Below are positions 28,530 through 49,714 of a stretch of DNA of 64,000 nucleotides, in pieces. A model generated the notes under the pieces. It searched no databases. It was not told the DNA's origin and saw only the letters and a program-made list of their open reading frames with translations. Positions within the stretch are counted from its first letter, which is position 1; each line of letters starts with the position of its first letter. Source of the stretch: an uncultured Gemmatimonadales bacterium. Its GTDB lineage: Bacteria; Gemmatimonadota; Gemmatimonadetes; Gemmatimonadales; GWC2-71-9. The DNA is taken from NCBI GenBank assembly GCA_963821525.1, contig CAWGED010000012.1, forward strand, positions 160,001 through 224,000, in the 5' to 3' direction. The position numbers and the translations under genes were made by a program.

Positions 28530-28612
28530 GGGGCGGTAGGGCGGTAAGGCGGACCGGGCGGACCGGCGGACAGGCAAACCGACGAACCGACGAACCGACG
28601 AACCAACGACGC
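28530..28612. repeat. 8-mer tandem repeats (GGCGGTAG/GGCGGACC-like, then AACCGACG x4) between convergent genes
   Basis: ggcggtagggcggtaaggcggaccgggcggaccggcggac ... aaccgacgaaccgacgaaccgacgaaccaacg. Confidence 0.8.
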
Positions 28613-28616
28613 TCAC

Positions 28617-31198
28617 TCACGACTGCCCCGACAACTTCTCCAACGCCTCCCCCAGATCCGGAACTTCCGTCAGCACCGGCGCCACCGGGTCGTGACCCAG
28701 CTTCTGCATCCGCTCGATGGCCGTCCGGATAGTGAACTTCGTGGGATCGAGCTTGTTGTTGACCTCCTTCCACTCCAGCGGCATGGAGACCGTCGCCCCC
28801 GGCAAGGGCCGAACCGCGTAGGGCGCCACGATCAGCTGCCCGTGACGGTTCTGCATGTAGTCGAGATAGACCTTGGTCCCTCGGCTCCGGATGTGCCGGA
28901 TGATGGTGGTGATGTCTCCCAGCTCACGCATCACGACTCGCGCGAGCAATTCCCCGAGCCCTCGAGACATCTCCCAGGTGAGCTGCTTACCCAGGGGCAC
29001 CATCACGTGCAGGCCGGTCTTTCCGGTCGTCTTCACGTAGTTGGGCAAGCCCGCCGCTTCACACCGCTCATGTAAGAGCCGAGCGACCTTGATCACATCG
29101 CTGAAGGGGGCCTCCTTGGGGTCGAGATCCATGACACACCAGTCAGGACGCTCCAGCGAGCCCGCGCTGCTGAGCCAGAGATGCAGCGGGATCGCCCCCA
29201 TGTTCGCGATATAGAGCAGAGAATCGAGATCATCGCACACGAAATACTTGATGTCCCGCCCGGTATCTTCGCTCCAGATCGGAACCGTCCGAATCCAATC
29301 CGGTATGAAGTCTGGCGCATCCTTCTGATAGAACGACTTTCCCTCGATCCCGTCTGGAAAGCGGGTGAGCACGACCGGCCTGTCGCGCAGATAAGGGAGC
29401 AGCCAGGGCGAGACTCCGCGGTAGTACTCGATTAGATCGCCCTTGGTGTAACCCTCGGCCGGCCAGAAGACTTTCTTCAGGTTGGTGAGTTGCAGGGGGA
29501 CAGAGCGGCGGCTCGGCGGCTCGGCGGCACGGCTCGGCGGCTCGGCGGCAGCGCGGCTCGGCGGCTCGGCTTTGGCCTTCCGACCTTTCTTCGGTTCGTC
29601 ATTCGATAATTCCGCCATTCCGCCATTCCGCCATTTGGCGAGTTCCGATGCACTCCTCGGGTTTCTTATCGTCGCGCCAGCGGAGGAACACCGGGTGACG
29701 CAGCAGGCCTTCATCGGTCCACTCGGTGAAGCGCACCTCACAGACCAATTCCGGTTCAACCCAGGTTGAGTCCTTCTTCGCCTCCGTGGGCACCTTCTCG
29801 CAGGGCGGCGTCTTTCGCTTCTTCTGCTCCAGGTGCTCCCGAATTCCGGTGAGATCCTTGTCGGTGAGCCCGCTGCCCGCGCGACCGGAATAGGTCAGCG
29901 CTCCGTCCACATACTGCGCGAGATGGAGCGCCCCCAGCCCCGCGCGCGATCCCTTGGGAGCGGTGAAGCCGACCACGACGAAATCGTCGCTCTTGGCCGC
30001 ACGAAGCTTGAGCCAGTTTCCCGAGCGGCCACCTTTGTAGGGGGCATCGGCCTTCTTTGCGACAAGACCCTCCAGCCCCATGCGTTCGGCCTCGGCGAAA
30101 GCCCGCTCCCCTTCCCGCTCGACGTGGTCGACGTAGCGGATGGCGCCGACCTCGGGGACGACCTGTTTCAGGATTTCCTTTCTTGCCTCCAGCGGCAGCG
30201 GGCGCAGGTCGTAGGGACCAAAGGCGAGAAGATCGAAGACGAAGTAGACCACCGGTTGCTCGATCGCCGCGCGCTGCACCTCGAGCGGGCGCCGGAGCCT
30301 GCCCCGTTGCTGCAATCCCTGAAAACTCGGCCGTCCGGTCGGATCCAGCGCCACCACCTCGCCGTCAAAGATCAGCGAATCGAACGGCATCGCCGCTACA
30401 GACTTCGCGATCTCGGGAAAGGTGACGGTAGCGTCGTTGTGATTGCGGGTGAGGAGAACAACCTGCCCCTTCCGCCGTTCGGCAAGGAGCCGGTATCCGT
30501 CGAGCTTAAGCTCGAACAGCCAGCCGTCGCGGGTGAACGGCTTCTCGGCAACTTCCGCCAGCATCAAGTCAACTTTGTCCGCCGTGATCTCCCGCTTGAG
30601 CGCCTTCACCCGCTCGAGAGCCTTCAGCACGGGCGCCGCCAGATCCGTCCTTGCCTTCATGTCTTCGACGGTGACGCCGGAAAGCACGGAGCCCTCGGGC
30701 ACTTCGCGCGCCACCGGGAGTTACGTACGCATCCCGTTCCTTGATCAGCAACCATTCCTTTTCGCCCTTCTTCAGCTTCACGAGAGTCCACATTCCGTGC
30801 AGCTTGTGGCCATCGAGGCGGAACAGGAGCTTCCCCTTCGCCAGGCCCTCGTTGGGGTCACCGACGGGAGTCCAGCTACCCCGGTCCCACACGATCACCG
30901 CTCCAGCGCCGTAGTTGCCCTCGGGAATCATCCCTTCGAAGTCCCCGTACTCCACCGGGTGATCCTCGACGTGCACCGCCAGGCGCTTGTCGTTCGGATC
31001 GTAGGACGGACCCTTGGGCACGGCCCAGGAGCGGAGGACCCCATCCATTTCGAGCCGAAGATCGAAGTGAAGCCGACGGGCGGCGTGTTTGTGCACGACG
31101 AACAGGTGCCCGCCACCCGGGGCAACGGATCCGCCCGGCTCCGGGGTGGCCTCGAGACGTCGCTTGGCCCGATAGGATGAGAGCGGATGCTCAGGCAT
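28617..31198 (-). CDS. ligD: NHEJ DNA ligase D (phosphoesterase-ligase-polymerase); apparent frameshifts ~30720 and ~29620
   Basis: PE: HKHAARRLHFDLRLE, SWAVPKG, VEDHP; LIG: ELKLDGYR, EGLVAK, WLK, LRHPVF; POL: TKGDLIEYY, RFPDG, DLDP, KTTGKTGLH, YLDY..N. Confidence 0.93.
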
Positions 31199-31328
31199 GG
31201 TCGGAAAAAGACAGGTAATCGGGGGAAAGGTAAAGAGGGCGGGAAGGCTCACGTCTCACGTCACCTCCGACTTGCAGTCTTACAAGTTCCAATCCTATTG
31301 TAAACTTTCCTCCGTCCGTCTGGGAAAT

Positions 31329-32204
31329 ATGGCTGCACGTACCATGGGTTCCGCGACAATCTCCTTCGGGCTCGTTTCCGTGCCCGTCGTCATGTACTCC
31401 TCGAGCGAGTCCGCGGCGAGCGTCTCGTTCAACATGCTGCACAAGAGCTGCGGGACCCGGCTCAAGCAGCAGTATATCTGCCCCAAGGACAACGTGGTGG
31501 TCGAGAAGGACGAGGTCGCCAAGGGGTACGAGTTCTCCAAGGGTCAGTACGTCTTGTTCTCCCCCGAAGAACTGAAGGCCCTCGACGAGAAGGCCACCAA
31601 CACCATCGACATTTCGGAGTTCGTGCCACTGGCGAAGGTGGACCGGATCTACCTCGAGAAGGCCTACTACCTGGGGCCCGACAAGGGTGGTGAACGCGCC
31701 TACCGGCTGTTGCTCGAGGCCCTGAGGGTGAGCGGCCGGGCGGCAGTGGGGCAGTATTCCGCCCGCGGGAAGCAGAACCTGATCCTGGTGCGTCCCCTGG
31801 AGGGAGCGCTGGTTCTGGAACAGCTGCACTATGCCGATGAGCTGCGCCCGGTGAGCGAGGTGCCGATCCCCGACACCCAGGTGAAGGACGCGGAGTTGCA
31901 GCTGGCCAAGCAATTGATCGACCAGTCCGCCACCGACGAGTTCAAGCCGGCCCAGTATCACGACACGGTGAAAGACCGGGTCCTGGAGGCGATTCAAGCC
32001 AAGGTGGATGGCCAGGAGATCGTGGCCGACGAGCCGCAGGCCCAGGAGACCAAGATCATCGACCTGATGGAAGCGCTGAAGGCGAGCCTCTCCAAGTCGG
32101 GCAAGGCCCCCGCCGGGAAGGCGCCGGCGATGAAGGTCGTCAAGGGCGGCAAGGCCGCGAAGTCGGGAGGGGAGAAGAGGGTGAAGAAGGCCGCGAGGGG
32201 ATAG
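31329..32204 (+). CDS. ku: NHEJ DNA end-binding protein Ku
   Basis: TISFGLVSVPV, KGYE, IDISEFV, YYLGPD, AYRLL..AL, IDLMEALKASL, Lys/Ala-rich basic tail; divergent from ligD. Confidence 0.96.
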   Translation: MAARTMGSATISFGLVSVPVVMYSSSESAASVSFNMLHKSCGTRLKQQYICPKDNVVVEKDEVAKGYEFSKGQYVLFSPEELKALDEKATNTIDISEFVPLAKVDRIYLEKAYYLGPDKGGERAYRLLLEALRVSGRAAVGQYSARGKQNLILVRPLEGALVLEQLHYADELRPVSEVPIPDTQVKDAELQLAKQLIDQSATDEFKPAQYHDTVKDRVLEAIQAKVDGQEIVADEPQAQETKIIDLMEALKASLSKSGKAPAGKAPAMKVVKGGKAAKSGGEKRVKKAARG

Positions 32205-32209
32205 GTTCA

Positions 32210-32275
32210 AGGGTCGTCGGTCGGGAGTCATGAGTCTTGAGTCAACGGACTCACGACCCAAGACCCCCGACCTGA
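32210..32275. repeat. Degenerate heptamer repeats in inverted arms
   Basis: ggtcgtcggtcgggagtcatgagtcttgagtc ... gactcacgacccaagacccccgacc. Confidence 0.65.
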
Positions 32276-32293
32276 GGCCATCGCTCCCAGGCC

Positions 32294-33121
32294 ATGAAAT
32301 CCTACAGCACAGCCGACGTTGCCCGCCTGATCGCACTCACGCCCCCGCAGGTTCGGGCGTACGCTCGGGCGGGCTTTCTGCGTCCGGCCCGGGGTCCGCG
32401 TAACACCTACCGGTTCTCCTTCCAGGATCTCGTGCTGCTCCGTGCCGCCAAGGCGCTACGCGATGGACACGTCCCGGGCCGCCGCATTCGTCGGGCGCTC
32501 CGTGGGCTGGCCCAGACCCTCCCGGCCGGTCGAGCGCTGAGCGAGATGCGGATCACTGCCGATGGGAACCGCGTGGTGGTGCGGGACAACGGCTGGATCT
32601 GGCAGCCGGATTCCGGCCAGATGCTGTTCGACCTCAGGGTCGGCAACCTGGCCCGGAAGGCTGCTCCGATCGCGCGGCGCCATGCGCGTCATGCGCGAGC
32701 TCGGGAGGAGACGCTCTCGGCGGACGACTGGTTCGGTCTCGGTGAGGAACTCGAGGCGGTCGAGCCCAGCGATGCGGAGGATGCGTATCGCCGTGCGCTG
32801 GCGCTCGACCCGCGGAACGCCGACGCGCACGTCAACCTCGGCCGGCTGCTCCAGGAGCGAGGGCGGGTGGAAGAAGCCGTTCTCCAGTATGAGGAAGCGC
32901 TTCGGCTCTCCCCCAAGCACGCACCCGCCGCCTTTAACCTCGGCACCGCCCTCGAAGATCTGAAGCGCACCAATGCCGCGATCGCAGCCTACCGCCGGGC
33001 AGTCGCACTGGACGAACAGCTCGCGGACGCCCACTACAACTTGTCGCGGCTCTACGAGAAAATAGGACAGCGTCAGGCAGCACTGCGGCATCTGAGCGCG
33101 TACCGGGACCTGGTTCGCTGA
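32294..33121 (+). CDS. MerR-like HTH + TPR protein
   Basis: YSTADVARLI...VRAYARAGFL..YRFSFQDL (MerR-like wHTH); 3-4 TPRs (ADAHVNLGRLL, APAAFNLG, ADAHYNL). Confidence 0.85.
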   Translation: MKSYSTADVARLIALTPPQVRAYARAGFLRPARGPRNTYRFSFQDLVLLRAAKALRDGHVPGRRIRRALRGLAQTLPAGRALSEMRITADGNRVVVRDNGWIWQPDSGQMLFDLRVGNLARKAAPIARRHARHARAREETLSADDWFGLGEELEAVEPSDAEDAYRRALALDPRNADAHVNLGRLLQERGRVEEAVLQYEEALRLSPKHAPAAFNLGTALEDLKRTNAAIAAYRRAVALDEQLADAHYNLSRLYEKIGQRQAALRHLSAYRDLVR

Positions 33122-33133
33122 CTGGAGGGGACG

Positions 33134-33835
33134 GTGCGGATTCTGTCGGGGACCAGCGGATGGTCGTTCAAGGAATGGAAGGGCAGCTTCTATCCGGCCG
33201 ACCTGCCGGCGGACCGCTACCTCGCCTATTACGCCGAGCGTTTCGGCACCGTCGAGGTGAACAACACGTTCTATCGGATGCCCAAGGAGAGCGTCCTGCT
33301 CGAGTGGGCCGCTCAGGTGCCGCCGCAATTTCGATTCGCCGTCAAGGCATCCCAGCGCATCACCCACTATTCCCGCCTCAAGGACGTGGCGGACAACCTC
33401 GCCTACTTCCTCCGCATCACGAACTCGCTGGGCGAGGCGCGGGGGCCGTCTCTCTTCCAGCTGCCTCCCAACCTGAAGAAAGATCTCCCGCTTCTGGTGG
33501 ACTTCCTCGCCCAGCTGCCGCCGCGCTGGCGCTCGACTGTCGAGTTCCGGCATCCGACCTGGCTCGCGGACGATGTGTACGATGCTTTACGAGAAAAGGA
33601 TGTTGCGCTCTGTGTGGCGGACCAGGATGATTTCTCGGTGCCGCCCATTGCGACGGCTTCGTGGGGTTATCTCAGGCTGCACCGGCTGACCTATGATGAG
33701 GCGGCTTTGGCGCGGTGGGCGGAGACGGTGCAGAAACAGCCGTGGGAGGAGTGCTACGTCTACTTCAAGCACGACGAGACCGAGGGCAGCGGCCCCGAGG
33801 CGGCGACCGCGTTTACCCGGTTAGTTCAGACCTAG
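33134..33835 (+). CDS. DUF72 (YecE-like) family protein
   Basis: GTSGW, FYP, VEVNNTFYRMP, KASQRITH, LFQLPP, EFRH, YLRLH; GGAGG RBS. Confidence 0.92.
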   Translation: MRILSGTSGWSFKEWKGSFYPADLPADRYLAYYAERFGTVEVNNTFYRMPKESVLLEWAAQVPPQFRFAVKASQRITHYSRLKDVADNLAYFLRITNSLGEARGPSLFQLPPNLKKDLPLLVDFLAQLPPRWRSTVEFRHPTWLADDVYDALREKDVALCVADQDDFSVPPIATASWGYLRLHRLTYDEAALARWAETVQKQPWEECYVYFKHDETEGSGPEAATAFTRLVQT

Positions 33836-33896
33836 GATACTGGTCTCGCGCCAGCCTCACCCCCTGTCCCGCCTCTCCCACCTTACGTCTCACGTC

Positions 33897-36831
33897 TTAC
33901 GTCCCACCCCTGACCCCACACTCCTCAGCCACCAGGTCCATCTCCTCCAGGAAGCGCATCCCCCCGGTGGGATTCTGATCCCGGCGATCGACCCTCGTGA
34001 GCACCAGCCGGTCCATGGCGCGGGTCATTCCCACGTAGAGCAGGCGTCTCGCTTCCTCTACTTCGCTGGGCTTCGTTTCACCGTTTCCAGTCTTGATCCC
34101 GGGCAGCTCTGAATCCTCGGCCCCGACGACATAGACCCGGGGGAATTCGAGGCCCTTGGTGGAATGCAGGGTGAGCAGGCTCACTCGGCCCCGATCCAGC
34201 TCCGGACCTCCGCGGGTGTTGGAGAGTGCGACCCTATCCAGAAAATCGGAGAGTTGCTCCATAAGGGGTGTTGTCTCAGGAACGCTGTCGAGCAGGCGAC
34301 GGAGCCGGGCCATGGCAGCCGGATAGCGCTCGTCCGCGGTCCGCTCCTTCCGCAGTCTCTCCATGAGGATTCTGCCGCCTAACCGTTCGATCAGCTCCTC
34401 GCGCGCTGGCGCGTTCTCCCCGCCTGGGCGAGCCCGCTCCGCCTCATATGATTCGAGCGCCTTGGAGTAGCGGCCCAGGGCGAAGAGCTTGCCCAGATCG
34501 AAAAAGAGCCTTGCCTCGCTCTTCTCTCCGGGATTGCTGAGCGCCAGTGCGACGGCGAGGTGATCGATCGCGGAGACGAGGCTCGTCTTTCTGGCCCGAG
34601 CGAGCTTCTGGGTTTCGAGCTTGAGGAAGACCCCGGCCAGGGTGCGGGCGTCATCGAGCGCATGATGCTCCCGTCCCGGTCTCGATCCCGAAGCTGTGGG
34701 CCAGATTCGCCAGTGCCCGGCTGCCCGGGTGAAGCATCCGTGCGAGAGGCAGAGTGTCGAGCGCGAGGAAGTCATTCCCTGCAGGATGGTCCTTCGCCAG
34801 CCGGCGCAGTACGGGGAAGTCGAACCCGTGTCCGTTGTGAGCGACCAGCAGATCGTCTGCGGCAAAGGCACGGAACTCGGTCCATACCGATGCAAAGTCC
34901 GGAGCGCCTGCGAGGGCCTCATCGGTGTAGCCGTGAATCGCGACGGAACGGGGGCTCACCGGCTGGGTTGGCTTGACCAACCGCTGGAAATCCTCGACGA
35001 CCACCCCGTCCCGTACCCGGACCGCTCCCAACTCCACCACGTCACAGCCATCCGCGTCGTTGTCCGTGGTCTCGACGTCCACCGAGACGAAATCGCGGAA
35101 CGCGTCTCCCCCCGACTCGGCCGCGACCACCTGCAGGGCCTTGAAGAGCTCCAGGCAACGAGTCGCCGGATCTCCCCCGGATTCGAGCACCACGTCTTCC
35201 GGCCGCGGTTTCGCCTCCGGCCCCTGATACTCCACCATGGTCACCCCGGCTTCCCGAAGAAGGCCGGCCAGCCCCAGCTCGGCGCCGCCCATCCGAGGGA
35301 GCCAGGCAGTCCCACGGCCATAGCGGATCCGAGCGAGGCGCTGTGCCAATTCGGTCGCCGCCGGGTGGCCGGCGGGATCGGTGATCTCCTCCGCGTGCTC
35401 TTCGAGAATGGTCCGGTACTCACCGACCCGTTGGGAGAGCAGCTCTCCGATCAGGCCGGCGAGATCGTCATGTCGCTCGGCGAAGACCGGGAGGTTGCCG
35501 AGGACGTAAAGGCAGCGCCGTATCTTGCGCCCGTCCTCGTCCTTGTGGGGTAACTGCCGGCCAAGCTGCCGAAGCCACTCCACGAACTCGGTGCGCTTCT
35601 GCTCCGCGTCGGCTCTGAGCGTGTCATACAGGGCCTGGGGCAACACGACTTTAATGAACTGTTCTTCCAGAATCGGATCGCCGGGGCGTTCGATGACCCG
35701 CAACGCCGCGATCAGATACTTGACCACCTTCACGTCCGCCAAGGCCCTTCCCTCGGCGAGCTGGCAGGGTATTCCCGCTTCGACCAGGCGCGCCTCCAGC
35801 GCTTCGCCGATCGAGTGCTTGCGGTAGAGCAGCGCGAAATCACCCCATGCCAGCGTGTTCTCGTCCCGATCCTGCACCAGATCGGCGACCAGCCAGTCGG
35901 CTTCCGCTTTCTCATCGGGGAAATGGCGGACCAGTACCGGCCAGCGCGACTCGCGAGTCGCGCTCAGTTCCTTCTCATGCAGCCTGGGATTATGAGCGAC
36001 GAGCCGCCGTGCCGTAGTGAAGATTTCCCGCGTACAACGCCGGTTCTCATTCAGAACGATGGGGTCTGCTGTGATCTTGTAGTCGTTCAGAAAGCGACGT
36101 AGAACTCTGGGATCGGCTCCGGTCCAGGAGAAGATTGACTGCTCGTCGTCTCCCACCATGAAAATGTTGCGGTGATCCCGAGCCAGTCGATTGAGAATCG
36201 CGTACTGGAACGGGTTCAGATCCTGGGCTTCGTCGACCAGGACATAGGACCACCGCGCCGCGATTTCAGCCGCGACGTCCGCCCGGGTGCGGATCAGCTG
36301 CTCGGCTCGGACCACCAGATCATCGAAGTCCAACAGCCCTCGCGCCTCGAGAATCTCCTGATACCGCTGGAAGAGTTTCGCGGTGTAGTCACCGAGGGGC
36401 TCGCCGAGGATTTTGTGCTGACTGAAGTACTTGAGGGGCCAGGAGGCTGGGTAGCGGTGACCGGCGCGGCGCAGCACCTGAGCCTGATACTCCTCGTCGG
36501 CAATTCCAAAACCCTGGGTCAGCCCGATCGCGGAGCCGTACTGCCTGAGCAGCTGCACGCACAGAGCGTGAATCGTCGAGCGGGTGACCTGATCCGCCGC
36601 GAGTCCCAGTGAGCCGCGCAACCGGTGGGCGATCTCTCCCGCGGCCTTATTGGTGAAGGTGACCGCGACGATTCGTTCCGGAGCGACTTCCAGCCGCCCG
36701 ATCAGGTAGCGAATCCGCTCGATCAGGCAGAAGGTCTTCCCTGCCCCCGGTCCGGCCAGAACCAGCAGCGGGCCGAGCGGGGCCTCGATGGCCTGGCGCT
36801 GACGAGCGGTTGGAACGGGAGGAGAGATCAT
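33897..36831 (-). CDS. UvrD/Rep SF1A helicase with an inserted DEDDh 3'-5' exonuclease domain; apparent frameshift ~34665
   Basis: GPGAGKT, TFTNKAA, DEAQD, VGDDEQSIF, TLHSTKGLEF, RRLLYVGMTRA; exonuclease DVETT, HNGHGFD, HHALDDA. Confidence 0.9.
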
Positions 36832-37521
36832 TCGTCCGCGCCGCGAGGACCCAGGTCGGCCCAGGCAGCAATGGTTGCCGCCATGTCCTCCTGAACCTCG
36901 ACCTTGGTGCGGCCGCTGCCCTTTTTCACGCCGAAGGAGTGATCGGCTCCATCAAAGAGCTCCAGCCTCGCGTGGGGACCCAGCCCGGCACAGACCTCGG
37001 TGATGAGGTCGAGCCGCGCGAAATCGTCGCGAGTGCCCTGCAGGAACAGCATGGGAATCCGGACCGAAGCCAGGTGTACGGCTCGTTCGAGGCCTGGCTT
37101 CCCGGGCGCATGCAGCGGGAATCCAAGGAAGACCAGCCCGCACACCTCGTCCAACGGAGACTCCGCGTGCGCTCCCGAGGTCATCCGTCCGCCGAACGAC
37201 TTGCCACCGGCAAGCAGCGGGATTCCGGGCAACAGTTCGGCTGCCTTCGCCACCGCGGCTCGAACTGTCGTGTGCGCGACCGGCGGGGGAATCGGTTCGG
37301 CTCTTCTTCGCCTCCATGTAGGGAAACTGGTAGCGAAGGGTGGCAATGCCGGAGGCCGCGAGTAGTCGCGCCATCGAATCGAGAAAAGGGTGCCGCATAC
37401 CGGCGCCAGCTCCATGTGCCACGACGTAGAGATGGGTCACGTCGTCAGCAATCTGCAACAGCCCACTGACACTGCTGTCATTGAGCTTGATGGAGACCGA
37501 TTCAGGCGCGGGCAAGGTCAT
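36828..37521 (-). CDS. Small alpha/beta hydrolase (KANL3/Tex30-like); apparent frameshift ~37290
   Basis: [37 protein letters not shown]; 4-nt overlap with the helicase start. Confidence 0.85.
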
Positions 37522-37679
37522 TCTAGTGGCTGGGAAGTTGGTACAAAGATACCTACCCCACAACGACTTAGCTCATCGCGTGGCGATCGTCACAGAGTGC
37601 CAACCGGGGGCCGGGCCAAGTTGCAGGTACGTGGCGGAGGCCGATTTTGCCACACTGAATTCTTCATGAGGAGGATGCA

Positions 37680-38333
37680 ATGGAAAATCCATCCACCAGT
37701 TCAGCCGCGTGGTCCGGCGGGAGCAAGATTCTGGTTGGAATCTTGAGTCTCGCTGTGGCTGGAGTCGTCGCGGCCGCGGTCGTCACTAAGGGCGGTCGCA
37801 CGGTGGAAGCTACCATACCAGCCGGTACTTCGGTGGTCGGCGCGCTCGAGCACACGATTTCGACCGAGAATAGCGACGCAGGTGAAGCGGTAGCGCTCAC
37901 GACTACCGAGCCGATGCAGCTGTCGGGTGGTACGCTTCCGGCCGGCGCCGTTCTGCATGGCGAAGTGACCCACGTGAAGGGCGGAGGCCGCATTGCCGGA
38001 GCACCCGAACTCACCCTGCGGTTCACCCGGCTGGAAGTCGATGGCAATGACTATCCCATTGCGGCCGATCCCTGGCGGGTAAAGGGCAAGGATGACCTCG
38101 GCGAGAGTGTGGCCGAGATCGGCGGTGGTGCGGTGGTGGGCGGCGTGGTGGGCGGAATCGCGGGCCACGGGTCAACCAAGGGCATCGTCACCGGTGCGGC
38201 GGTGGGTGCGGTACTCGGAACCGGCGTCGCCGTCGCTACCAAAGGAGGCCAGATCGTATTGCCCGCCGGCCAGCGGCTGAAGGTGAGGCTGGCGGAGGGC
38301 GTGAAGGTGAAGTACGAGCCGGAGAAGACGTAG
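37680..38333 (+). CDS. Membrane-anchored hypothetical protein (TrbI/VirB10-like beta domain + glycine zipper)
   Basis: N-terminal TM; TIPAGT..., LPAGAVLHGEV, LTLRF; GGGAVVGGVVGG..GAAVGAVLG; GAGGAGG RBS. Confidence 0.7.
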   Translation: MENPSTSSAAWSGGSKILVGILSLAVAGVVAAAVVTKGGRTVEATIPAGTSVVGALEHTISTENSDAGEAVALTTTEPMQLSGGTLPAGAVLHGEVTHVKGGGRIAGAPELTLRFTRLEVDGNDYPIAADPWRVKGKDDLGESVAEIGGGAVVGGVVGGIAGHGSTKGIVTGAAVGAVLGTGVAVATKGGQIVLPAGQRLKVRLAEGVKVKYEPEKT

Positions 38334-38334
38334 T

Positions 38335-38450
38335 AGGCGGGAAGGCGGGTGAGGGCGGTAGGGCGGTAGGTAGGAAAAGGCGGGAGGTTTGGAGGAAACT
38401 CCGGACCTTCCGCCTTTTCTTACCGTCTGACCGCCTTCCCGTCCGCGGCA
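38335..38450. repeat. Degenerate 8-mer repeats with purine-rich and pyrimidine-rich inverted arms
   Basis: aggcgggaaggcgggtgagggcggtagggcggtagg ... ccttccgccttttcttaccgtctgaccgccttcccgtcc. Confidence 0.6.
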
Positions 38451-38481
38451 AAGGCCGAGTCAATTCGTCTTGAGCCGAGCA

Positions 38482-38683
38482 GTCGCTGAAGCGACACAAT
38501 AGCCGAGTGGCGGCTTCAGCCGCCGAATCGGGCTTGATCCGTCACAAGTCCGCGGGTAAGGCCGGCTCAAGTCGACGGCTAAAGCCGGCTCAAGTCGACG
38601 GCTAAAGCCGGCTCAGGTCGGCGGCGAATCCGGCGCAATTCGGCGGCTAAAGCCCGCCACTCGGCGCCTGTCGCTGAAGCGAC
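38482..38683. repeat. Nested-palindrome REP/REPIN-like element with internal 23-bp tandem units
   Basis: GTCGCTGAAGCGAC at 38482-38495 and 38670-38683; 27-bp inverted repeats 38502-38528 / 38638-38665; GCCGGCTCAAGTCGACGGCTAAA x2 perfect plus 2 degenerate units (38538-38629). Confidence 0.8.
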
Positions 38684-38771
38684 GTGAAAACCGGGGGGGG
38701 GGCGCGTGCCATCTCGCGGTCGACGGCACCGTCCGTCCAGTCCGCCCCGTCCGTCTTATCTTCCCTCCACC

Positions 38772-40531
38772 ATGCGGTCCCTTCCGCTCTCACTGTACCT
38801 CACAGCTCTCTGCCTCTGCCCGGCGCGAATCGCGTCGCCTCAGGCAACACCCACCGTCGACAGCGCGGTCTCCATCACGATGCGCGACGGGGTGGTGCTC
38901 CGGGCTGACGTCCTGCGGCCGAGTGGGCCCGGAAGGTTTCCGGTCCTGGTGTACCGAACACCGTATGATCGGGCGGATGCGGCTGATGCCACCGGGCTGG
39001 CGAAGAAGGCGGTCCAGCGCGGCTACGCGGTCGTAGTTCAGGATGTGCGGGGCCGCTATGGCTCCGATGGGACCTTCACCGCCTACAGCCAGGAAGGCAA
39101 AGACGGATACGATACGATCGAGTGGGCAGCGCAACAGCCGTGGTCGAACGGCGCCGTCGGCAGCTTCGGGCTTTCCTATCCGGGAGCGGTCCAATGGCTC
39201 GCCGCGGTGGAGCGCCCGCCGTCGCTCAAGGCGATGGTGCCGGCGATGACCTACGCTACACCCGAGACCTTCTGGTACTCGGGCGGCGTGTGGGATGGGT
39301 CGTGGCTCGACTGGACCTGGTTCAACATCGCGCCGGACCTGCGACGTCGCCTCGGCGTTCCTGGAGCACAGACCTCAGAGCAGGCCGCGACTCAATGGGA
39401 GACCGACCGCGACCGGCTCCGCAACTACCGGCCACTGTCCACTCTGCCAGACTTCGAAGGTGTTGCCCCGTGGTACTACGAATGGATGCGCCATCCGCCG
39501 CGCGACTCGTGGTGGAAGTGGGCAACCCTCGAAGGCAAGTACTCCGCCGTCAGCGCCGCAGTGCTCAACATCTCCGGGTGGTTCGATGAACCGTATGGGC
39601 CCTTCGGGGCGGTGACCAACTATCAAGGATTGGTGACTTCGCGAGATGCCAGTGATCCGCGTACCAAACTCATTCTTGGAGCCTGGACCCACGGCGTCGC
39701 CGCGGTCCAGCGAGAGAAGGCGGGAGACCGGCTGTTCGGCTCGGATGCGGCGATCGACTACGATGAGACCGTCCTTCGGTGGATGGATCGCTACCTGAAG
39801 AACGCGGAGAATGGCCTCGACAGCGATCCTTCTGTTAGAGTGTTCGTGATGGGTAGCGAACACCTGGCGGACCAGTCAGGTCTGGCCCTTCGAAGGAACC
39901 AGGACCGACACGCTGTTCCTCGCCGGGAGCGTGGATTCCAAATCGAATGGCCGCCTCGAGCATGGCGAGTCACGGTCGTCCGGAAGCAGTACCGTCCGGT
40001 CCGATCCTGCCAACCCCCTGGCCGATCCCTACGAGGGACGGGCCGGCGTGCACGACTACGCTGCCCTGACGGGTCGCCCCGACATCGCCGTCTTCGAGAC
40101 GACGCCTTTCAAGTCTGCGGTCGACGTGATCGGGCCCGTGGTTGCGGAGCTATCGGTCGGGAGCAAACTGCCGGACTTCGATGTCTGGGTCCAAGTGTAT
40201 GATGTCGCCCCAGAGGGGCAGAGCCTGGAACCTGACCACGGCCGGGAGCGGGCTCCAACGAGCCAGCTATCGCGACGGGGGACCGGACCGTAAGCCGTTG
40301 CAGCCGGGGCAGATCGTGAGTCTCAGGCTGGATCGCCTTTTTACTGCGAATCGGTTTCTCCCCGGCCACCGCCTTCGCATCGTAGTCTCCACCGCATTCA
40401 CTCCATGGTTCTCGGTGAATCCGCAAACTGGAGAGCTCGAGCTCTTCTCCAGCGGCGCGCGCGCGGGAGACGTAGTGATTCATCACTCGAAAGAGCACCC
40501 ATCCCGCCTGCTACTTCCCGTAGTGCCCTGA
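38772..40531 (+). CDS. CocE/NonD family hydrolase (peptidase S15-like), exported; apparent frameshifts ~39860 and ~40220
   Basis: MRDGVVLRAD, RTPY, QDVRGRYGSDG, DGYDTIEW, GLSYPG nucleophile, GWFD, GAWTH; C-terminal GHRLRI...HPSRLLLPV. Confidence 0.9.
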
Positions 40532-40580
40532 TCAGGTTCTCTTTCAGCCGTCAAGCTGAGTACGTGCATACAGGTGCCCG

Positions 40581-43500
40581 ATGTCCCTCTCTGCCTTTCA
40601 TCCCGCCGTTGCCCGCTGGTTCCAGGAACGCCTCGGTGAGCCAACTCCTGTCCAAACAAAAGGATGGGAGGCCATTCGCCGGGGAGAGGACACTCTCATC
40701 ACGGCCCCGACGGGGTCAGGCAAGACGCTCGCCGCCTTTCTGATAGAGCTGGACGAGCTGCTGCGAGAATCGCTGAGCGGTGCCCTGCCGGACGAGACCC
40801 GGGTGGTCTACGTCTCTCCTTTGAAGGCGCTCTCCGCCGACATCCACAAGAACCTCGCCGAGCCTCGGCGCGAGATCCGCCGATTGGCGGAGGAGATGGG
40901 ACACGGCGAGGTCAGGATCACCGCCGCGGTTCGCAGCGGCGACACTCCTGCCTCGGAGCGGGCCTCGATGCTCCGGACCCCGCCCCACATTCTCGTAACC
41001 ACACCAGAGTCGCTCTACCTGCTTCTCACGGCGGAACGAAGCCGCAAGATGCTGAGCACGGTGCGGACGGTGATCGTTGACGAAATCCACGCCGTGGTCG
41101 ACTCGAGGAGAGGTGCCCATCTCGCGCTGAGCCTGGAGCGCCTGGAGCACGTCGCGGGGCGTAAGCTGCAACGGATCGGCCTGTCAGCCACGGTAAACCC
41201 CGTGGAGCTGGTAGCCGACTGGCTGGTCGGCTCGAATCGCCGAGCGACGATCATAAACGAGGGCCACCGCCGAGCCTTGGACCTCGCGCTCGAGCTGCCG
41301 GGTTCTCCCCTCGAAGCCGTCATGGCTGGGGAGGTATGGCTCGAGATCTACAACCGGCTCACCGACCTCATCAACCAGCATCAGACAACCATCGTCTTCG
41401 TCAACACACGAAAGCAGGCGGAGCGGGTAGCTCGCCACCTGGCCGAGCGGGTAGGAGAAGAGCTGGTGACTGCGCATCACGGCAGTCTGTCGAAGGAAAT
41501 CCGGCTCGCCGCGGAAGAGAAGCTCAAGACCGGTAAGCTCAAGGCACTGGTCGCCACTGCCTCATTGGAGCTGGGAATCGACATCGGGCACGTGGATCTG
41601 GTGTGCCAATTCGGCTCGCCGCATCGGATTGCTGCCTTCCTGCAGCGGGTCGGTAGGAGCGGACATACGGTGGCCGGCACGCCTAAGGGACGGCTTTTCC
41701 CACTGAGTCGCGACGATCTGGTTGAGTGTGCCGCCCTCCTGCGCTGGGCCCGCGCGGGAGTCCTGGATCGGCTCTGGGTCGTCGAGCACCCCGCGGATGT
41801 TCTCGCCCAACAGATCGTGGCGGAATCTGCGGCGGAAGACTGGGCCACCGATGATCTCTTCGACTTGGTGCGTCGAGCCTATCCCTACCGTGAGCTCAGT
41901 CGCCAGCAGTTCGACCAGATCGTCCAGATGGTCGCTCAGGGATTCACCACCCGGCGCGGTCGTCGCGGAGCGCTGGTTCACCATGACGGAGTGAATCAGA
42001 GACTTCGCGGCCGGCGCGGTGCCCGGATGCTGGCCCTGACTTCCGGCGGTGCCATTCCGGAAACGGCGGACTATCGGGTCTTGCTGGAGCCCGAGGGAAC
42101 CTTCATCGGCACCGTGAACGAGGACTTCGCCGTCGAGAGCATGGCGGGAGACGTCTTCCAGCTCGGGAATGCCTCGTGGCGCATGCTCCGAATCCAGGCT
42201 GGGACAGTTCGAGTGGAGGACGCACATGGCGAACCGCCCGGAATTCCCTTCTGGCTTGGTGAAGCACCGGCGAGGAGCGATGAGCTCTCTGTTGCGGTTG
42301 CCGAGTTGCGGCGCGAAGTCGGAGAAGCGCTTGGGAGATCGGGACGCTGCCGAGAAGTGGTTGGTGCAGGAGCTGTCGAGCAGGACGGACAAGTCGAGCG
42401 GGACGGACGGAGCACTGGAAACGCCGACTGGTCCGACCCGACCGCCTCTGTCCGACCCGACAACCTCCGCCGCATTCCAAATCATCCACTATCTCGCCGA
42501 CGCCCATCGGATCCTCGGCGTCCTGCCAACTCAGGATACCGTGATCGCCGAGCGGTTCTTCGACCAGGCCGGTGGAATGCAGCTCGTGATCCATGCGCCA
42601 TTCGGCAGCCGGATCAACAAAGCGTGGGGTCTGTCACTTCGCAAGCGATTCTGCCGCAGCTTCAATTTTGAGTTGCAGGCCGCTGCCACCGAGGACGGCA
42701 TCGTGCTCTCGCTGGGGCCGCAGCATTCATTCCCGCTCGAGAACGTCTTCGATTTCCTCCACCCGTCGTCGGTGCGCGAAGTGCTGGTCCAGGCCCTGCT
42801 GGATGCGCCTCTATTCGGCACGCGGTGGCGCTGGAATGGCAACATCTCCCTGGCGATCCCGCGCTATCGCGGCGGGAAGAAGGTTCCGCCCCAAATCCAG
42901 CGCATGGAGGCGGATGACCTGCTCGCCGCGGTGTTCCCCGACGCGGCGGCCTGCCTCGAGAATATCGCCGGCGATCGGGAAGTCCCCGATCACCCCCTCG
43001 CCTCACAGACCATCACCGATTGCCTTACTGAGGCGATGGATCTCGATGGTCTGATCAAGGTTCTCGAACGCCTTCGTGCCGGCGAGATCAACTGCGTTGC
43101 CCGAGACCTGCCGGAGCCTTCGCCTCTCAGCGCCGAGATCCTGAACGCTCGACCGTACGCCTTCCTCGACGATGCCCCGCTGGAAGAGAGGAGAACCCAG
43201 GCGGTCTATACCCGTCGCGCCTTCGAGCCGTCCTCGGCAGACGATCTCGGTGCTCTCGATCCTCAGGCGATCGAGAGAGTCCGGGAACAGGCATGGCCCG
43301 AGGCGGAGAACGCCGATGAGTTGCATGACGGGTTGCTCACTTCGGGGTTCATTCTGGAAAAAGAGGCGACGGACAGGGCGGGCGAGACGGACAGGGCGGA
43401 CGCGGCGGAGGAGCGAGCCCCTGACTGGAACGAGCTGTTCGATGAACTGGTCCGCGCGGGCCGGGCACAGCGAATCAGTATCGACTCCGCGCCTTCGGCG

Positions 43501-45034
43501 CTCTGGGTCGCAACCGAACGTCTAGCGCGAGATTCTAGGCCATCCACCCGTCGTCTCCGTCCCGTCCGCCCCGTCCGACCTGACCGTCCCGACCCGCGAA
43601 GAAGCCGATTCGCGAACTACTCCGCGGCCGCCTGGAGATCGTCGGACCCACCACCGCAGCCGAGCTGGCGAGCACGCTCGGTGTGGGCGAAGGAGATGCG
43701 GACCTCGCACTCGCCGCGCTGGAACGAGAGGGAGTCGTACTCCGCGGGCGGTTCACTCCGGGAGCCACGACTCTCGAGTGGTGCGACCGACGGCTGCTTG
43801 CGCGGATTCACCGCTATACCCTGGATCGCCTCCGGGCCGAGATCGAACCGGTCAGCGCCGCCGATTTTATGCGCTTCCTGTTCCGGTGGCAGCGGATAGA
43901 TCCGGAATATCGAGTCTCAGGCCTCGAGGGCCTGGCGAGCGTCCTGGAGCAGCTCGACGGCTTCGAGGTTCCGGCGAAGGCCTGGGAGCCCGACGTTCTG
44001 GCGGCGCGCATGCACACGAATACGATCCTGCGTTGCTCGACATGCTTTGCCTCACCGGCCGTATCGCCTGGGCTCGGCTTTCGGCTGGAGGCAATCCTGC
44101 GGCACGTCCTGCGAGCCGTCCCATTCGGTCAACGCCGGTGGCGACTCCCGCTTCGTCAGCACCTAGGCTCCTGGCTGGCGATCGCGCCAACGGCCGAAGC
44201 GCCGGCGCTTTCGTCCTACGCTCAGGATGTGCTCGCAGTGCTGAGTCGCCGCGGGGCATCGTTCTTCACCGACCTGACTGCGGGCTCCGGCCTTCTCGCC
44301 ACCCAGGTCGAACAGGCTTTGGCCGAGCTGGCCGCAGCAGGACTGGTCACCTCTGACAGCTTCACGGGACTTCGTGCCCTGCTTACTCCATCCGACCGTC
44401 GCAAGCCGCTGGTGACCCGTGCCGCCTCGACCGACGTGCGACGCCATAGAACGGTCAACTTCGGGATCGAGGGAGCAGGCCGCTGGAGCCTCCTTCACCC
44501 TGAATCCACCGGCCGAGCCGCCGAGCCGAGCCGCGCGAGCCGCCGAGATTGAGCTCCTCGCCCTCACCCTCCTCGCTCGCTACGGCGTGGTCTTCCGGAG
44601 ACTCCTCGCCCGGGAAAGCCTCACCGTGCCGTGGCGCGTGTTGCTTCAGGTCTATCGCAGGCTCGAGGCGCGGGGGGAAATTCGCGGGGGGCCGGTTCGT
44701 GGCCGGCATGCAGGGAGAGCAATTCGCGAGGCCGGAGGCGGTGACCCAGCTACGCGCGGTCCGCCGGGCCACAAAGGACGTTGAGCTGGTCGTGCTGTCG
44801 GCAGCGGACCCGCTGAATCTCACCGGCCTCGTCACACCCGGTGAACGGATCTCCGCGCTGGCGAGCAACCGTATCGCCTGGCGGAACGGAGTTCCGGTCG
44901 CGGCCCTCGAAGGCAACGAGGTTCGCTGGCTGCGCGACGACGTAAACCCGGAGGACCGGCTCGAGATCGAGCGAGCCCTGGCCCGCAAGCGGATCAGCCC
45001 CGCGTTAAGGGGCTATCTCGGCATGACAGGGTGA
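40581..45034 (+). CDS. lhr: Full-length Lhr ATP-dependent SF2 helicase with C-terminal domain; at least 5 apparent frameshifts
   Basis: [53 protein letters not shown]-terminal [33 protein letters not shown]. Confidence 0.9.
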
Positions 45035-45042
45035 ATCGTTTC

Positions 45043-47470
45043 CTACTCGTAGCGCAGGGCAACCATCGGGTCCACCCGCATCGCCCGTCGCGCCGGAATG
45101 AGCGTCGCGAGCAGGCTGGTCAGTGCCAGCGCCACCGTCACACCGACATACATCACCGGGTTCTTGGTGTTCACCTGGAACATCACCAGAACCAGTCCTT
45201 TGGCGAGGAAGAACGCCAGCACCAGGCCGCAGGTCAGTCCGATCAGGATCTGCAGTCCCCCCTGACGAAGGAACATCCGCAGCACGTCGCGCGCGCTGGC
45301 GCCGAGCGCCATGCGAACTCCGATCTCCCTGGTGCGCCGGGATACCGAGAAACTGACAACACCGTACACCCCGACGGTCGCCAGCAACAGCGCGGCACCG
45401 CCGAACACCATGAAGAGCGTACCGAAGACCCCGTAGAACCACCCGTTCTCCCGGATGGCTTCCTGGAGCGTGCGGACGAAATAGATCGGCTGGTCGGGAT
45501 CGATGCTGCTCACCACTCCCTGCACCGGATTCGCGAGGCTGGCTCGGATCTCCCGGCGCGACGACGGCGAGGCTGACGAAGCGGTAGTCGCTTTGGCCGA
45601 GCGGGGTGAAGACCACGGCGCCAAGCTGGTGATCGTCGTCGGTGCCGTCATACCAGACATCGGGGACCACGCCGACGATGGTGAGCCAGGGCTCCTTCGA
45701 GTCTGCCTGACCGATCCGGATCCGGCGCCCGAGAGCAGACTCGTCTCCCAGGTGTTTGTGCACGAATCCCCGGGAGACCACGGCAACCGGCAGGGTGCCA
45801 CCGATATCGCCCGGGGTGAGCAGGCGCCCTTCGATCGGCTTCACCTTGAAGGTCTCGAACCATCCCGGCGTGACCGCGACCTTCCGCGTGCTCGGATAGT
45901 CACGCTCGCTGGCGTAGGTCTTCCCTTCCAGCGCGAAGTTCTCGTTCCATCCCTCGAGTCCCGGCAACACGGTCATCAGCGCGACACCTCGCTGACCTGG
46001 AATCCCCTGGAGCTTTTCCTCGAGAGTGGTCCAGAATCGAGCCCGGCTCGCCGAGTCGGGGTAGGTGGCGTCGAAGAGCCCGACCCTGGCCGTAAAGACA
46101 TTGCTGGTCGGGACTCCGTATTCGAACGTGGCCAGCTGCACCACGCTCTGAATCATGAATCCGGCGCCTACGAGCAATCCGCCGGAGAGCGCCAGCTCGG
46201 CAATGACCAGACCGCGGCTGAACTTACCGATCCGAAGCGAGGAAGATCCTCGGCTCTCATCCTTGAGCACCTCGTTGAGGTTGGTGCGAGTCGCCTGCAA
46301 TGCCGGGATGACTCCGCTCACCAGAGCCGCGATCAGGGTGACACCGGCGGTAAAGGCAAACACGACGCCGTCCAGCTTGATGTCTACCCAGAAGGGCGCC
46401 CCGCTCCCCTGCATCGAATCCACGAACCATCGTACGCCGAATGCAGCGATCACAATGCCAAGCAGCGAACCGATCGTCGCGAGCAGGAGGGATTCGGTGA
46501 GCAGCTGGGCCACGATCCGGCGCCGGCTCGCGCCGAGAGCGGTGCGGACGGCGATCTCCTTGGTCCGCGTTGCGGCGCGCGCCAGCAGGAGGTTGGCCAC
46601 GTTGGAACAGGCGATCAGCAGCACCCCGAAGACCGCCGCCATCATGGTCCAGAGCATGATGATCGGCTCTTCGCCGATGTACTCCTCGGTGAAGGGCTTG
46701 ACGATCGGCGTGACTCCTTCGTTTTCCTTGGGATGATCCTGGGCGATGCGGGCGCAGATGGTCTCGAACTCGCGCTTCGCCTGAGCCATCGTCACTCCGG
46801 GCTTGAGCCGGCCCATGACCTCGAGCTCATCGCCCTCGCCCCAGGGAAGCGCCGTAGGATCCATGGTCCTCGGCAGCCACAATTGCGACAGTGTGGGGAA
46901 GAGGAACTTGCGAGGCATGACACCCACGACTTCGTGGACCAGGCCGTTGGCCCGAATCGTCTTGCCGATGATGGCGGTGTCGCCACCGAAGCGGTTCTGC
47001 CAGATGTCCCAACCGATGATGGCGACCGGTGGAGCCCCTGGCCGGTTGTCGTCTTCGGTAAACAGCCGTCCCCGAAGTGGCTGAACCCGGAGCAACTTGA
47101 AAGCGGACGCCGTAATGAACCCGCCCTGGAAACGCTCCGGTCCCCCTTGCAGCCCGCTTACGTTGATCGTTCCCTCGGTCCAGGCGGCGAGGTCCTCGAA
47201 GCTCTTCTGCTGCTCCCGCCAGGCAGTGAAATCGCTGACCGGAACGCCGTAGCTGTCGACGCCGCGACTCGGGCGCGCTCGCTCGAGATGAAGGATCTGG
47301 CTGGCATGCTCGAAGGGCAGCCCCCGGAGGATGCCGCCCCACATGATGCTCCACATCGTGGTAGTGAAGCCCAGGCCCATGGCGAGAGCGAGGATCGAGA
47401 TGATGGCGAGGCCGGGATGCTTGGTCAGCATCCGGAAGCCATGCTTCAGGTCGGAGAAGAAGGAGCCCAT
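45043..47470 (-). CDS. Duplicated MacB-type ABC permease (ADOP family); apparent frameshift ~45545
   Basis: DLKHGFRML, LLIACSNVANLLLAR...EIAVRTALGA, RTREIGVRMALGA, PARRAMRVDPMVALRYE. Confidence 0.92.
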
Positions 47471-47550
47471 CTTGTCACTCCGGAGCTTTTCGGGGATCAG
47501 ACCCGGCCTACGGCGCCTCCGGGGACAAGGTTTCAGACTAGGAACCACTG

Positions 47551-48166
47551 ATGGATTCGACCCCGTTTCGCTTGTTCCTCTTGTCCCCCGCCCACTGCGG
47601 CGGGAAGCGCGCCCAGCTGCTGGTCAATGGCAGAGGGCGCTTTCCCGTTGGCGGCCCGTCTGCGGGCCGGTGAATCAGTCACCCTTGGTGAGACGTTCGC
47701 CTTCCTGAGCGGCCTCTACTTCAGAGGCAAGCTGACCTACGCTCGGCACTTCGGCCGGGCACCGTCGGGACACGCCGCCGTCCTGGTCATCACCGCCAAC
47801 AACGGGCTGGTGCCCGCAGAATCGAGCGTCACCATTCGCCAGCTCAAGGGATTCGGAACCGTGGACATCGATTCAGACAACCCACACTACCGAGAGCCGC
47901 TGCAGCGCGACATTGCCAGGCTGCGCGAACTGGACGGAGTGGAGATCGTCCTGCTCGGCAGCATCGCGACCGGCAAGTACGTGGACGTGCTGCTGGAGTC
48001 GTTGGGCGACCGGCTGTTATTCCCCGGGGATTTCGTGGGACGGGGGGACATGAGCCGCGGGGCCTTGCTCCTTCAGGCGGCCAGGAAGGGCACCGAGCTC
48101 AAGTATGAACCGGTACTCGGCGCAATTCGGACTGGCAGACGGGCACCGCGCATCGCATCAGGATGA
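47551..48166 (+). CDS. Hypothetical protein (possible YaaA/DUF6884-like fold); apparent frameshift ~47635
   Basis: MDSTPFRLFLLSPAHCGGKRAQLL from ATG 47551 continues, shifted by +1, into ORF 47627..48166 (FLSGLYFRGKL, VITANNGL, LLGSIATGKY, GRGDMSRG). Confidence 0.7.
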
Positions 48167-48313: not shown

Positions 48314-48595
48314 CTAGGTCAAGGCGCGGCGCAGCAGCCGGCCGCGACGCTTCCCCTCCCGCACCACGATGTTCTTGGTGGCAATCAGTTTCTTCGTGGT
48401 CATGATTGCCCTTTCCACCCGGCGCGAGTGCGCCACCGCATCCCGCAACCGCCGTAAGTCCTTCTCCAGCCTGTAGCGTTTGATCTGTCTCGCGATGTCC
48501 TTCTTATCCCTCTCGAAGTCTTTGAGCTGCGCCTTGGCCAATTTGGTAATTCGGGCCCAGCGCGTCTCGAATGACTTGATGCTGCGCAGTTGCAT
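48314..48595 (-). CDS. Small, highly basic helical hypothetical protein (93 aa)
   Basis: AGGAGAGGG RBS upstream of the ATG; Lys/Arg-rich, helical pattern. Confidence 0.55.
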   Translation of the reverse strand: MQLRSIKSFETRWARITKLAKAQLKDFERDKKDIARQIKRYRLEKDLRRLRDAVAHSRRVERAIMTTKKLIATKNIVVREGKRRGRLLRRALT

Positions 48596-48718: not shown

Positions 48719-49714
48719 TTAAAGCGCTAACGGCTTCGGAGTGCGGGCGAGTGAGCGTTCGCCGGATACGAGGGCGCGGAAGCGTCTCAGGAATGAGGAA
48801 GCGCGGGAGCCGCCGGGAATCAAGTTGGATCTGCAGCGGACCATCGCCGAATAGAGGGCATCGGCGCTCTTCCACCGGCCCTTCGGGTCACGGACCAGGC
48901 AACGGTCAACGATCGAAGCGAGATCCGCGGGAACATCGGGAGCCAGTTCGCGGAGTGGAGCGGCGTTGCGAGCAGTCCGTTGAGCCGCGAGCGAGATCGC
49001 CGACTGACCGGTGAAAGGCAGCCGGCCGGCCAGCATGCGATAGGCAACGAGCCCCAGGGAGTAGATATCGGTTCGGAAGTCTGCTTCCCAGGATCCCAGC
49101 GCCTGTTCCGGAGACATGAAGGCCGGGGTGCCGAACCCCTTCCCTACTTCGGACCGGGAGTGGTCCGAGGTCCGCAGCGTCGCGATACCGAAATCGGTAA
49201 GGAAGGGCCAATCGTCCTCGTCCTGCATCAGGATGTTGTCGGGCTTCACGTCCCGATGGACCACGCCATGACGGTGAGCATGGGCCAACGCATCGGCAAC
49301 CGGAATAAGAATTGAAAGCGTCCGGGTCGGGCTCAGCCGGCCGTCATCGCCCAGCCGATCGGCCAGGGAGCGGCCGGGGATGTAGCGCATGATTGCGAGC
49401 GCGAGCCGGTTGTGATGAACGAACTGGTAGCAGGGAACGATGTGGGGATGCTCGAGCTCGGCGGAGATCAACGCCTCTCGCCGAAAGCGCTCGCGATTCT
49501 CTACTGAAGCGCCCTGAGCCGGATCCAGCAGTTTGAGGGCGACCCGGCGGCCTTCCTGCCGGTCCAGGCCGAGGAGGACAACGCTCATGCCACCGCGGCC
49601 CAGGGGACGGATGACATCGTACCGATCGCCGGTAAGGAGGGAAACGCCCCGACGACAGGCTTCGAGCTCCAGGGGCTCCATCCCCAGATTGAGTACGGGT
49701 GCGGCGACTTCCAT
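48719..49714 (-). CDS. Stand-alone Ser/Thr protein kinase (catalytic domain only)
   Basis: GRGGMSVV, VALK, HRDVKPDN, DFG, FMSPE, DIYSLG. Confidence 0.9.
   Translation of the reverse strand: MEVAAPVLNLGMEPLELEACRRGVSLLTGDRYDVIRPLGRGGMSVVLLGLDRQEGRRVALKLLDPAQGASVENRERFRREALISAELEHPHIVPCYQFVHHNRLALAIMRYIPGRSLADRLGDDGRLSPTRTLSILIPVADALAHAHRHGVVHRDVKPDNILMQDEDDWPFLTDFGIATLRTSDHSRSEVGKGFGTPAFMSPEQALGSWEADFRTDIYSLGLVAYRMLAGRLPFTGQSAISLAAQRTARNAAPLRELAPDVPADLASIVDRCLVRDPKGRWKSADALYSAMVRCRSNLIPGGSRASSFLRRFRALVSGERSLARTPKPLAL

Follow-up and report, generated by a model that had tools for sequence, protein, structure and literature searches.

A ku-ligD end-joining locus in a Gemmatimonadales bacterium with a ku-linked winged-helix/TPR gene and three candidate end-processing genes

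Results

The subject of this work is a bacterial end-joining locus built around ligD and ku, the genes of non-homologous end joining (NHEJ), in an uncultured Gemmatimonadales bacterium. It lies in a stretch of 64,000 nucleotides (the window; positions 160001-224000 of contig C12, accession CAWGED010000012.1) from a 4.3-Mb genome in 19 contigs that is 81% complete. A sequence-only reading of the window had suggested that positions 28617-48166 may be one expanded end-joining system reaching from ligD to a full-length Lhr helicase and a "YaaA/DUF6884-like" gene. A Pfam profile search on 30 open reading frames (ORFs) of the window agrees with the gene order and identities given in that reading around ku and ligD: ligD on the minus strand, then ku, a gene with MerR_1 and TPR (tetratricopeptide repeat) domains and a DUF72 gene on the plus strand, followed by a UvrD helicase with an RNase_T exonuclease domain and an Abhydrolase_11 hydrolase on the minus strand. 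Beyond the hydrolase are a 217-aa gene (orf217, with weak Gly-zipper and TraM matches only), a CocE/NonD hydrolase, Lhr, an ADOP permease and a last gene of 204 aa. Three of these, orf217, the CocE/NonD hydrolase and the permease, went unmentioned in the earlier reading and separate Lhr and the last gene from the ku core. GC content is flat over 28617-48166 (0.62-0.66), and this part of the window therefore does not have the look of a recent island.

The core consists of a three-domain LigD and a complete Ku. The ligD gene (28617-31198, minus strand) joins phosphoesterase, ligase and polymerase domains (PE-LIG-POL; Pfam LigD_N, DNA_ligase_A_M/C and LigD_Prim-Pol) in one gene near ku; it falls into three ORFs here and is a single intact ORF in a genome of the same genus, G001. 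The ku gene (31329-32204, plus strand) encodes 291 aa with the full Ku core and a basic C-terminal tail, matches Pfam Ku and scores 285 bits against TIGR02772, over the curated cut-off of 150. The two genes are divergent, as had been read from the sequence, and the region between them is very short (31196-31331, and likewise in relatives). A predicted sigma-70-type promoter for ku (TTGCAG ... TATTGT; 31272-31301, plus strand), called from a motif conserved in relatives, has a spacer of 18 bp here and 17 bp in three same-genus genomes. A zinc-ribbon bridge is known from Ku, and in the bridge region (31440-31490) the pattern HxxC...CxxD, a possible zinc site, is kept here and variably lost in relatives.

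Behind ku on the same strand (32294-33121) lies a gene for a 275-aa protein with a MerR-type winged helix-turn-helix (HTH), a small beta domain and about four TPR repeats, hereafter the HTH/TPR gene, which we consider a candidate NHEJ adaptor. The MerR_1 match has an E-value of 3e-10. In a structural model (pLDDT 92.9, pTM 0.61), the winged HTH (residues ~1-57) is followed by a helix, a three-stranded sheet (86-103), a linker helix and eight TPR helices, and Foldseek matched only TPR proteins, in line with a C-terminal half made of TPR. The most conserved residues (D45, L55, Q109, F43, R21 and R50) lie in the N-terminal half. No conserved cysteine was found among 71 rows (29 are free of cysteine and no column exceeds 13/71), the protein contains no BRCT domain, and no catalytic role is evident for it.

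The remaining three genes encode probable enzymes. The DUF72 protein (33134-33835, plus strand; 233 aa) is a TIM barrel by Pfam and by a profile match to 1vpq (TM1631; E 3e-34), and is a candidate nuclease-like end-processing enzyme; like the other two, it has retained its catalytic motifs. PMC11791011 places the DUF72 barrel close to UV-damage endonuclease and reports the family as enriched near polB2. The helicase gene (33897-36831, minus strand; 973 aa in G001, split here) encodes a UvrD/PcrA-like helicase with an inserted DEDDh exonuclease (Pfam UvrD and RNase_T), and its helicase motifs GPGAGKT and DExQD and the exonuclease residues D585, E587, D671, H722 and D727 are invariant in 12 of 12 rows. 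Its NCBIfam scores for PcrA, Rep and UvrD are under the equivalog cut-offs, and a separate PcrA/UvrD-like gene with 36% identity to this helicase lies on contig C5 of the same genome. The Abhydrolase_11 serine hydrolase (36828-37521, minus strand; 230 aa in G001, split here) keeps a triad, GGKS108, D165 and H194, that is invariant in 25 rows, with the roles assigned by position. Its stop overlaps the start of the helicase by 4 nt (36828-36831), which bears out the coupling of these two genes seen earlier.

The state of the genes differs from the earlier description, in that several are not in one piece. Frameshifts split ligD (3 ORFs), the helicase (2), the hydrolase (2) and Lhr (4), and the last gene is affected too. 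These splits are likely assembly errors, because G001 holds intact ORFs (LigD 887 aa, Lhr 1454 aa, helicase 973 aa, hydrolase 230 aa), because ligD differs from its G001 counterpart by single-base insertions near 29640 and 30709, and because sthA, an unrelated adjacent gene, is likewise split.

Comparison of ku loci separates a travelling set of genes from local neighbours. A search of 61 genomes, including this one, found Ku in 41 (G060 additionally has a ku split over contig ends), and about 10 kb on each side of ku, or less where contigs end, was fetched for all 40 relatives. Three of these loci come from the same genus. Of the rest, 30 have the main type of Ku, and seven have a distant one (31-39% identity), with ligD either absent or in tandem. 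With neighbours called at identity thresholds of 30-40%, the 30 main-type loci outside the genus have the LigD phosphoesterase in 29, DUF72 in 20, the hydrolase in 17, the HTH/TPR gene in 14 and the UvrD-DEDDh helicase in 6, counts that are lower bounds given the short contigs and that are not independent given the kinship of the genomes. In the same loci the flanking control genes sthA, a terB-like gene, an ATP-grasp gene, orf217 and CocE were each found in none and msrB in one, and the four extra genes are absent from all seven loci of the other Ku type. Order and strand are shuffled: the hydrolase is mostly directly behind ligD, the helicase on either side, and DUF72 beyond ligD or, in either orientation, behind ku. 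The association is therefore not the slow decay of one block; in different genera and families the four genes stay with ku and ligD, though reordered, and the flanking genes are lost, as expected for a travelling neighbourhood.

In a genome-wide tally over 60 relatives, 34 have main-type Ku, 7 the other type and 19 no Ku that we could find. The HTH/TPR gene is present in 20, 0 and 0 genomes of these groups, the hydrolase in 29, 0 and 1 (including G018, added from a partial match), the helicase-exonuclease in 24, 1 and 2, Lhr in 16, 5 and 3, and the last gene in 4, 3 and 2. All 20 relatives carrying the HTH/TPR gene thus have main-type Ku, which this gene needs. The helicase-exonuclease adjoins ku in only six of the 30 main-type loci counted above and stays beside a hydrolase in G010 and G043; we consider it a looser, lineage-level member.

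The link between ku and the HTH/TPR gene extends well beyond this sample. The gene was found in 39 of 201 genomes of a Gemmatimonadota sample, and in 31 of the 32 new genomes that have it, ku lies directly upstream on the same strand; most gaps between the two are shorter than 55 bases. Near the gene in these 32 loci are DUF72 in 20, the hydrolase in 19, the helicase in 5 and Lhr in none. The family comprises 769 representatives at E <= 1e-10. A metagenome scan gave 589 confirmed matches, of which the best 80 were kept; 62 of these extend at least 700 bases upstream, and ku is upstream in 53 of the 62. The N-terminal part of the protein also matches 29 plasmid records, all from Burkholderiales, and ku is directly upstream in all 16 opened, overlapping the HTH/TPR gene by 4 nt in four, so that the synteny holds in a second phylum. 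At a protein identity of about 40% between the phyla the junction is still kept, and this holds even for plasmids that have no ligD next to it. In a tree of 81 Ku proteins, which excludes pieces below 250 aa and four Ku from plasmids and for which the tool warns of long branches, all 58 HTH/TPR-linked rows of both phyla, including Ku from this locus, fall in one 73-row clade (SH-aLRT 99). The eight rows outside the clade come without an HTH/TPR gene; one of them is a Variovorax plasmid's second Ku. On the Burkholderiales plasmids, SRAP genes lie near the ku-TPR pair in three cases and a NucS-domain gene with imuA/imuB in one (L283, L284, L289, L119). In eight low-GC metagenome loci (L231, L235, L241, L249, L254, L255, L268 and L269), the HTH/TPR gene stands without a nearby ku. 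In those listed, it faces a gene resembling an acyl-CoA dehydrogenase and lies near a run resembling uvrY-udg-uvrC-pgsA, with a response regulator and a uracil-DNA glycosylase at its start; these names are our reading of the sequences rather than the result of a family scan.

The full-length Lhr helicase (40581-45034, plus strand; Pfam WH, DEAD_assoc, WH3 and WH4; split here) is present as given in the earlier reading, and is no member of the ku system. A single dedicated break-processing system spanning all 20 kb, Lhr and the 204-aa gene included, would fit the preservation of the block in the four same-genus genomes up to where their contigs end, and Lhr does lie 12-15 kb from ku in G016 and G045. 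Otherwise, however, Lhr occurs with ku only in this genus, and none of the 30 main-type or 32 further loci has it within 10 kb of ku. It is often beside an ImuB/DnaE2-like cassette (names read from the sequences): in G030, G013, G035 and G023, four of the five regions listed out of 20 fetched, Lhr is near such a cassette or a second DUF72 gene. Moreover, unrelated genes intervene here, and the 204-aa gene has no ku nearby in any of 25 loci outside the genus. Synteny has thus largely refuted the single-system reading, which we consider very improbable; Lhr is a genus-local neighbour of ku, and 28617-48166 is not one unit.

The 204-aa last gene (47551-48166, plus strand; frameshifted near its start) appears instead to belong to another pathway. 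Its earlier label as YaaA-like finds no profile support: there is no Pfam match up to E 5, no NCBIfam match and no relevant PDB match that would place it in YaaA, DUF328 or DUF6884. A YaaA fold stays a weak lead: for a model with pLDDT 88.2, Foldseek gave no match at E <= 0.001, and E. coli YaaA (5caj), at rank 17 with E 0.24, had the highest probability (0.35) and TM-score (0.40) among the rows listed. The family has at least 7999 clusters, no Pfam family, and members in 40 of the 201 phylum genomes. Among 20 loci fetched, 8 have an adjacent stand-alone Prim-Pol and small ligase, and 3, all of one genus, a lone LigD phosphoesterase; DUF72 and a ligase fragment occur in 1 each, 7 have none of these, and no locus has ku. 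Four of the nine earlier relatives with the gene also have a Prim-Pol alongside. This arrangement resembles the excision-repair pair of mycobacteria, LigC and Prim-PolC, in that the 204-aa gene directly precedes a Prim-Pol and a small ATP-dependent ligase in the 8 of 20 loci; it differs in that here the gene is parted from the Prim-Pol/ligase pair of its genome, which sits at C6:47955-50891 without it. The available part of PMC5663958, which describes the mycobacterial pair, does not mention the 204-aa family. The last gene thus drops out of the ku system and likely belongs to a separate Prim-PolC/LigC-type repair module, and the earlier guess that it is a repair gene is plausible for that pathway.

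Several other features of the window were noted. Frameshifts are frequent in ordinary genes throughout, and many ORFs are Ser/Thr kinase-like (for example 418-2319, 4797-7010, 48719-49714, 56701-57600 and 60158-61813). Short imperfect repeats such as gacgaacc x4 and cggcggct x5 occur between genes and in the LigD linker (28570-28612, 29500-29570, 32205-32290 and 38335-38440), and similar runs vary between same-genus genomes. A basic 93-aa ORF at 48314-48595 has no family match and is kept in four same-genus genomes.

Discussion

Altogether, we regard the association of ligD and ku with the HTH/TPR, DUF72, hydrolase and UvrD-DEDDh genes as a real module of six genes centred on ku, with one cross-phylum and three lineage-level members. 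The idea of an expanded end-joining system, and of a conserved neighbourhood wider than ku and ligD, hence survives for these four genes and fails for Lhr and the 204-aa gene. Our preferred reading, for which we see about an even chance, is that of a standard ku-ligD locus to which an optional Ku-pathway adaptor, the HTH/TPR protein, and three lineage-specific end-preparing enzymes have been added. In such a pathway, Ku would load onto the break. The HTH/TPR protein, made by co-translation or co-transcription with ku, would use its winged HTH to hold DNA close to the end, and its TPR groove would bind a peptide from Ku, from LigD or from a processing enzyme. DUF72 might then incise or clean damaged ends, the UvrD-DEDDh fusion could unwind and trim 3' tails, and the serine hydrolase might remove an ester-linked blocking group, the weakest step of the scheme, before LigD fills and then seals the break. 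A stronger form, in which one widespread Ku subfamily has a dedicated winged-HTH/TPR adaptor that binds the complex of Ku and the DNA end and recruits LigD or end-cleaning enzymes, is possible, and we put it forward tentatively.

Because the HTH/TPR protein carries a MerR-type domain, it might instead be a regulator. Classic MerR-type activators, such as MerR and CueR, need a promoter with a long spacer of 19-20 bp that holds a dyad operator. The pattern TTGC-N2-spacer-TANNNT was called upstream of main-type ku in 41 of 63 regions, against 15 times in 1400 shuffles and never in the 7 other-type regions, and the spacer is 17 bp in 31 of the 41, at similar frequency with the HTH/TPR gene (25/32) and without it (6/9). 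In 35 regions there is no dyad excess at the ku promoter (best arm 3.9, compared with 3.8 in shuffled sequence), and neither the spacer nor the 12 bases upstream of the -35 box have a conserved base except the ligD start codon. A classic MerR mechanism at ku is therefore unlikely, although another target is possible; the protein, for its part, has the winged HTH of such activators by MerR_1 match and model but lacks conserved metal-binding cysteines and has a TPR half in place of a ligand-binding effector domain. In relatives, the -10 box is often 6-10 bases ahead of the ku ATG and the ligD start codon often lies within the promoter spacer, which suggests a leaderless ku mRNA and overlapping ligD and ku promoters. 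One regulator would suit such a pair of divergent genes, and a repressor of the end-joining genes resembling CarH or GlnR, whose TPR half senses a partner or damage signal and whose accompanying enzymes are co-regulated repair genes, would also be in keeping with the MerR_1 match, with the conserved basic residues of the HTH (R21, R25, R33, R40 and R50) and, counting against our preferred reading, with the CarH-like and GlnR regulators being the nearest solved relatives of the N-terminal part by sequence (E 4e-4 to 0.03). The likeness to these proteins ends at the winged HTH, however, the spacer and the lack of a dyad or conserved base tell against a repressor at ku as they do against an activator, as does the absence of conserved cysteines, and no shared motif was found upstream of DUF72, the hydrolase or the helicase. 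We therefore consider the repressor a rather doubtful reading. An adaptor made alongside Ku, as we infer, fits the coupling behind ku, the DNA-binding fold and the peptide-binding repeat.

Several observations weigh against the preferred reading of an adaptor with end-preparing enzymes. The evidence for the function of the module is genomic throughout, the relatives compared are kin, so that counts overstate independent events, and the Ku tree was a quick one with an outgroup of only 8 rows. The HTH/TPR gene is missing from 14 of the 34 genomes with main-type Ku and is therefore dispensable, and it lacks a nearby ku in 9 of the 62 evaluable metagenome loci (L213 and the eight low-GC loci) and in G195. 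DUF72 is present in 61 of 61 genomes with several paralogues, and a second paralogue stands beside an ImuB/DnaE2-like cassette, often with Lhr (L098-L102; C8:158000-168000); it seems that some DUF72 paralogues go with a mutagenesis cassette and others with the NHEJ locus. In 8 of 8 off-locus copies of the helicase checked, no module gene is nearby. Finally, relatives of the hydrolase (55-59% identity) on 6 of 6 proteobacterial plasmids have neither ku nor ligD within 7 kb, and the link of the hydrolase to ku is therefore lineage-level. Such observations could also mean that the genes merely hitchhike, sharing stationary-phase or stress expression and being inherited or transferred together while the extra proteins are inactive in end joining. 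Most of the evidence does come from a single Ku clade and from related genomes, the extra genes are each frequently absent or located away from ku, hydrolase relatives occur elsewhere in metabolic contexts and a group with no ku nearby retains the HTH/TPR gene. Against this, the junction of ku and the HTH/TPR gene survives between phyla at the low identity given above, often with a 4-nt overlap, and the flanking control genes are lost within the family. Hitchhiking thus appears unlikely to us as an account of the whole; it would account better for the hydrolase and helicase than for the HTH/TPR gene.

In comparison with known systems, the adaptor-based locus that we favor shares with two-component NHEJ, in which a Ku homodimer acts with a three-domain LigD, the adjacent full Ku core and PE/ligase/Prim-Pol LigD. 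It differs in its divergent genes with a shared short promoter region and in up to four further travelling genes, none of which belongs to the described minimal system. Extra proteins working with Ku are known from mycobacteria: PMC3102665 gives Sir2 as a Ku partner, and the title of Sinha 2007, a reference in PMC4889933, gives UvrD1. The UvrD-family helicase is a point of likeness, whereas the protein here carries an inserted DEDDh exonuclease, and the Pfam scan of the locus gave no Sir2 match. With the DUF72 proteins TM1631 and EF0366 the likeness is the profile match to 1vpq, and the difference is that one paralogue here is tied to ku and ligD. Our literature searches found no paper treating both DUF72 and NHEJ and none on the HTH/TPR gene beside ku.

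Descriptions of bacterial end joining give it two proteins, to which mycobacteria alone are known to add a few partners. The HTH/TPR gene, which follows ku in Gemmatimonadota and Burkholderiales and often overlaps it, is a candidate for a general third component. Strains with the ku-TPR pair include members of Cupriavidus and Paraburkholderia, and the gene is found in non-pathogenic strains that can be cultured. The locus also gives DUF72, a family with a solved structure and no assigned function, a testable context, and it allowed a second unnamed family, tied to Prim-Pol/LigC repair, to be separated out. If the stronger form of the adaptor reading is true, it would make bacterial end joining modular, multi-protein and scaffolded, as it is in eukaryotes.

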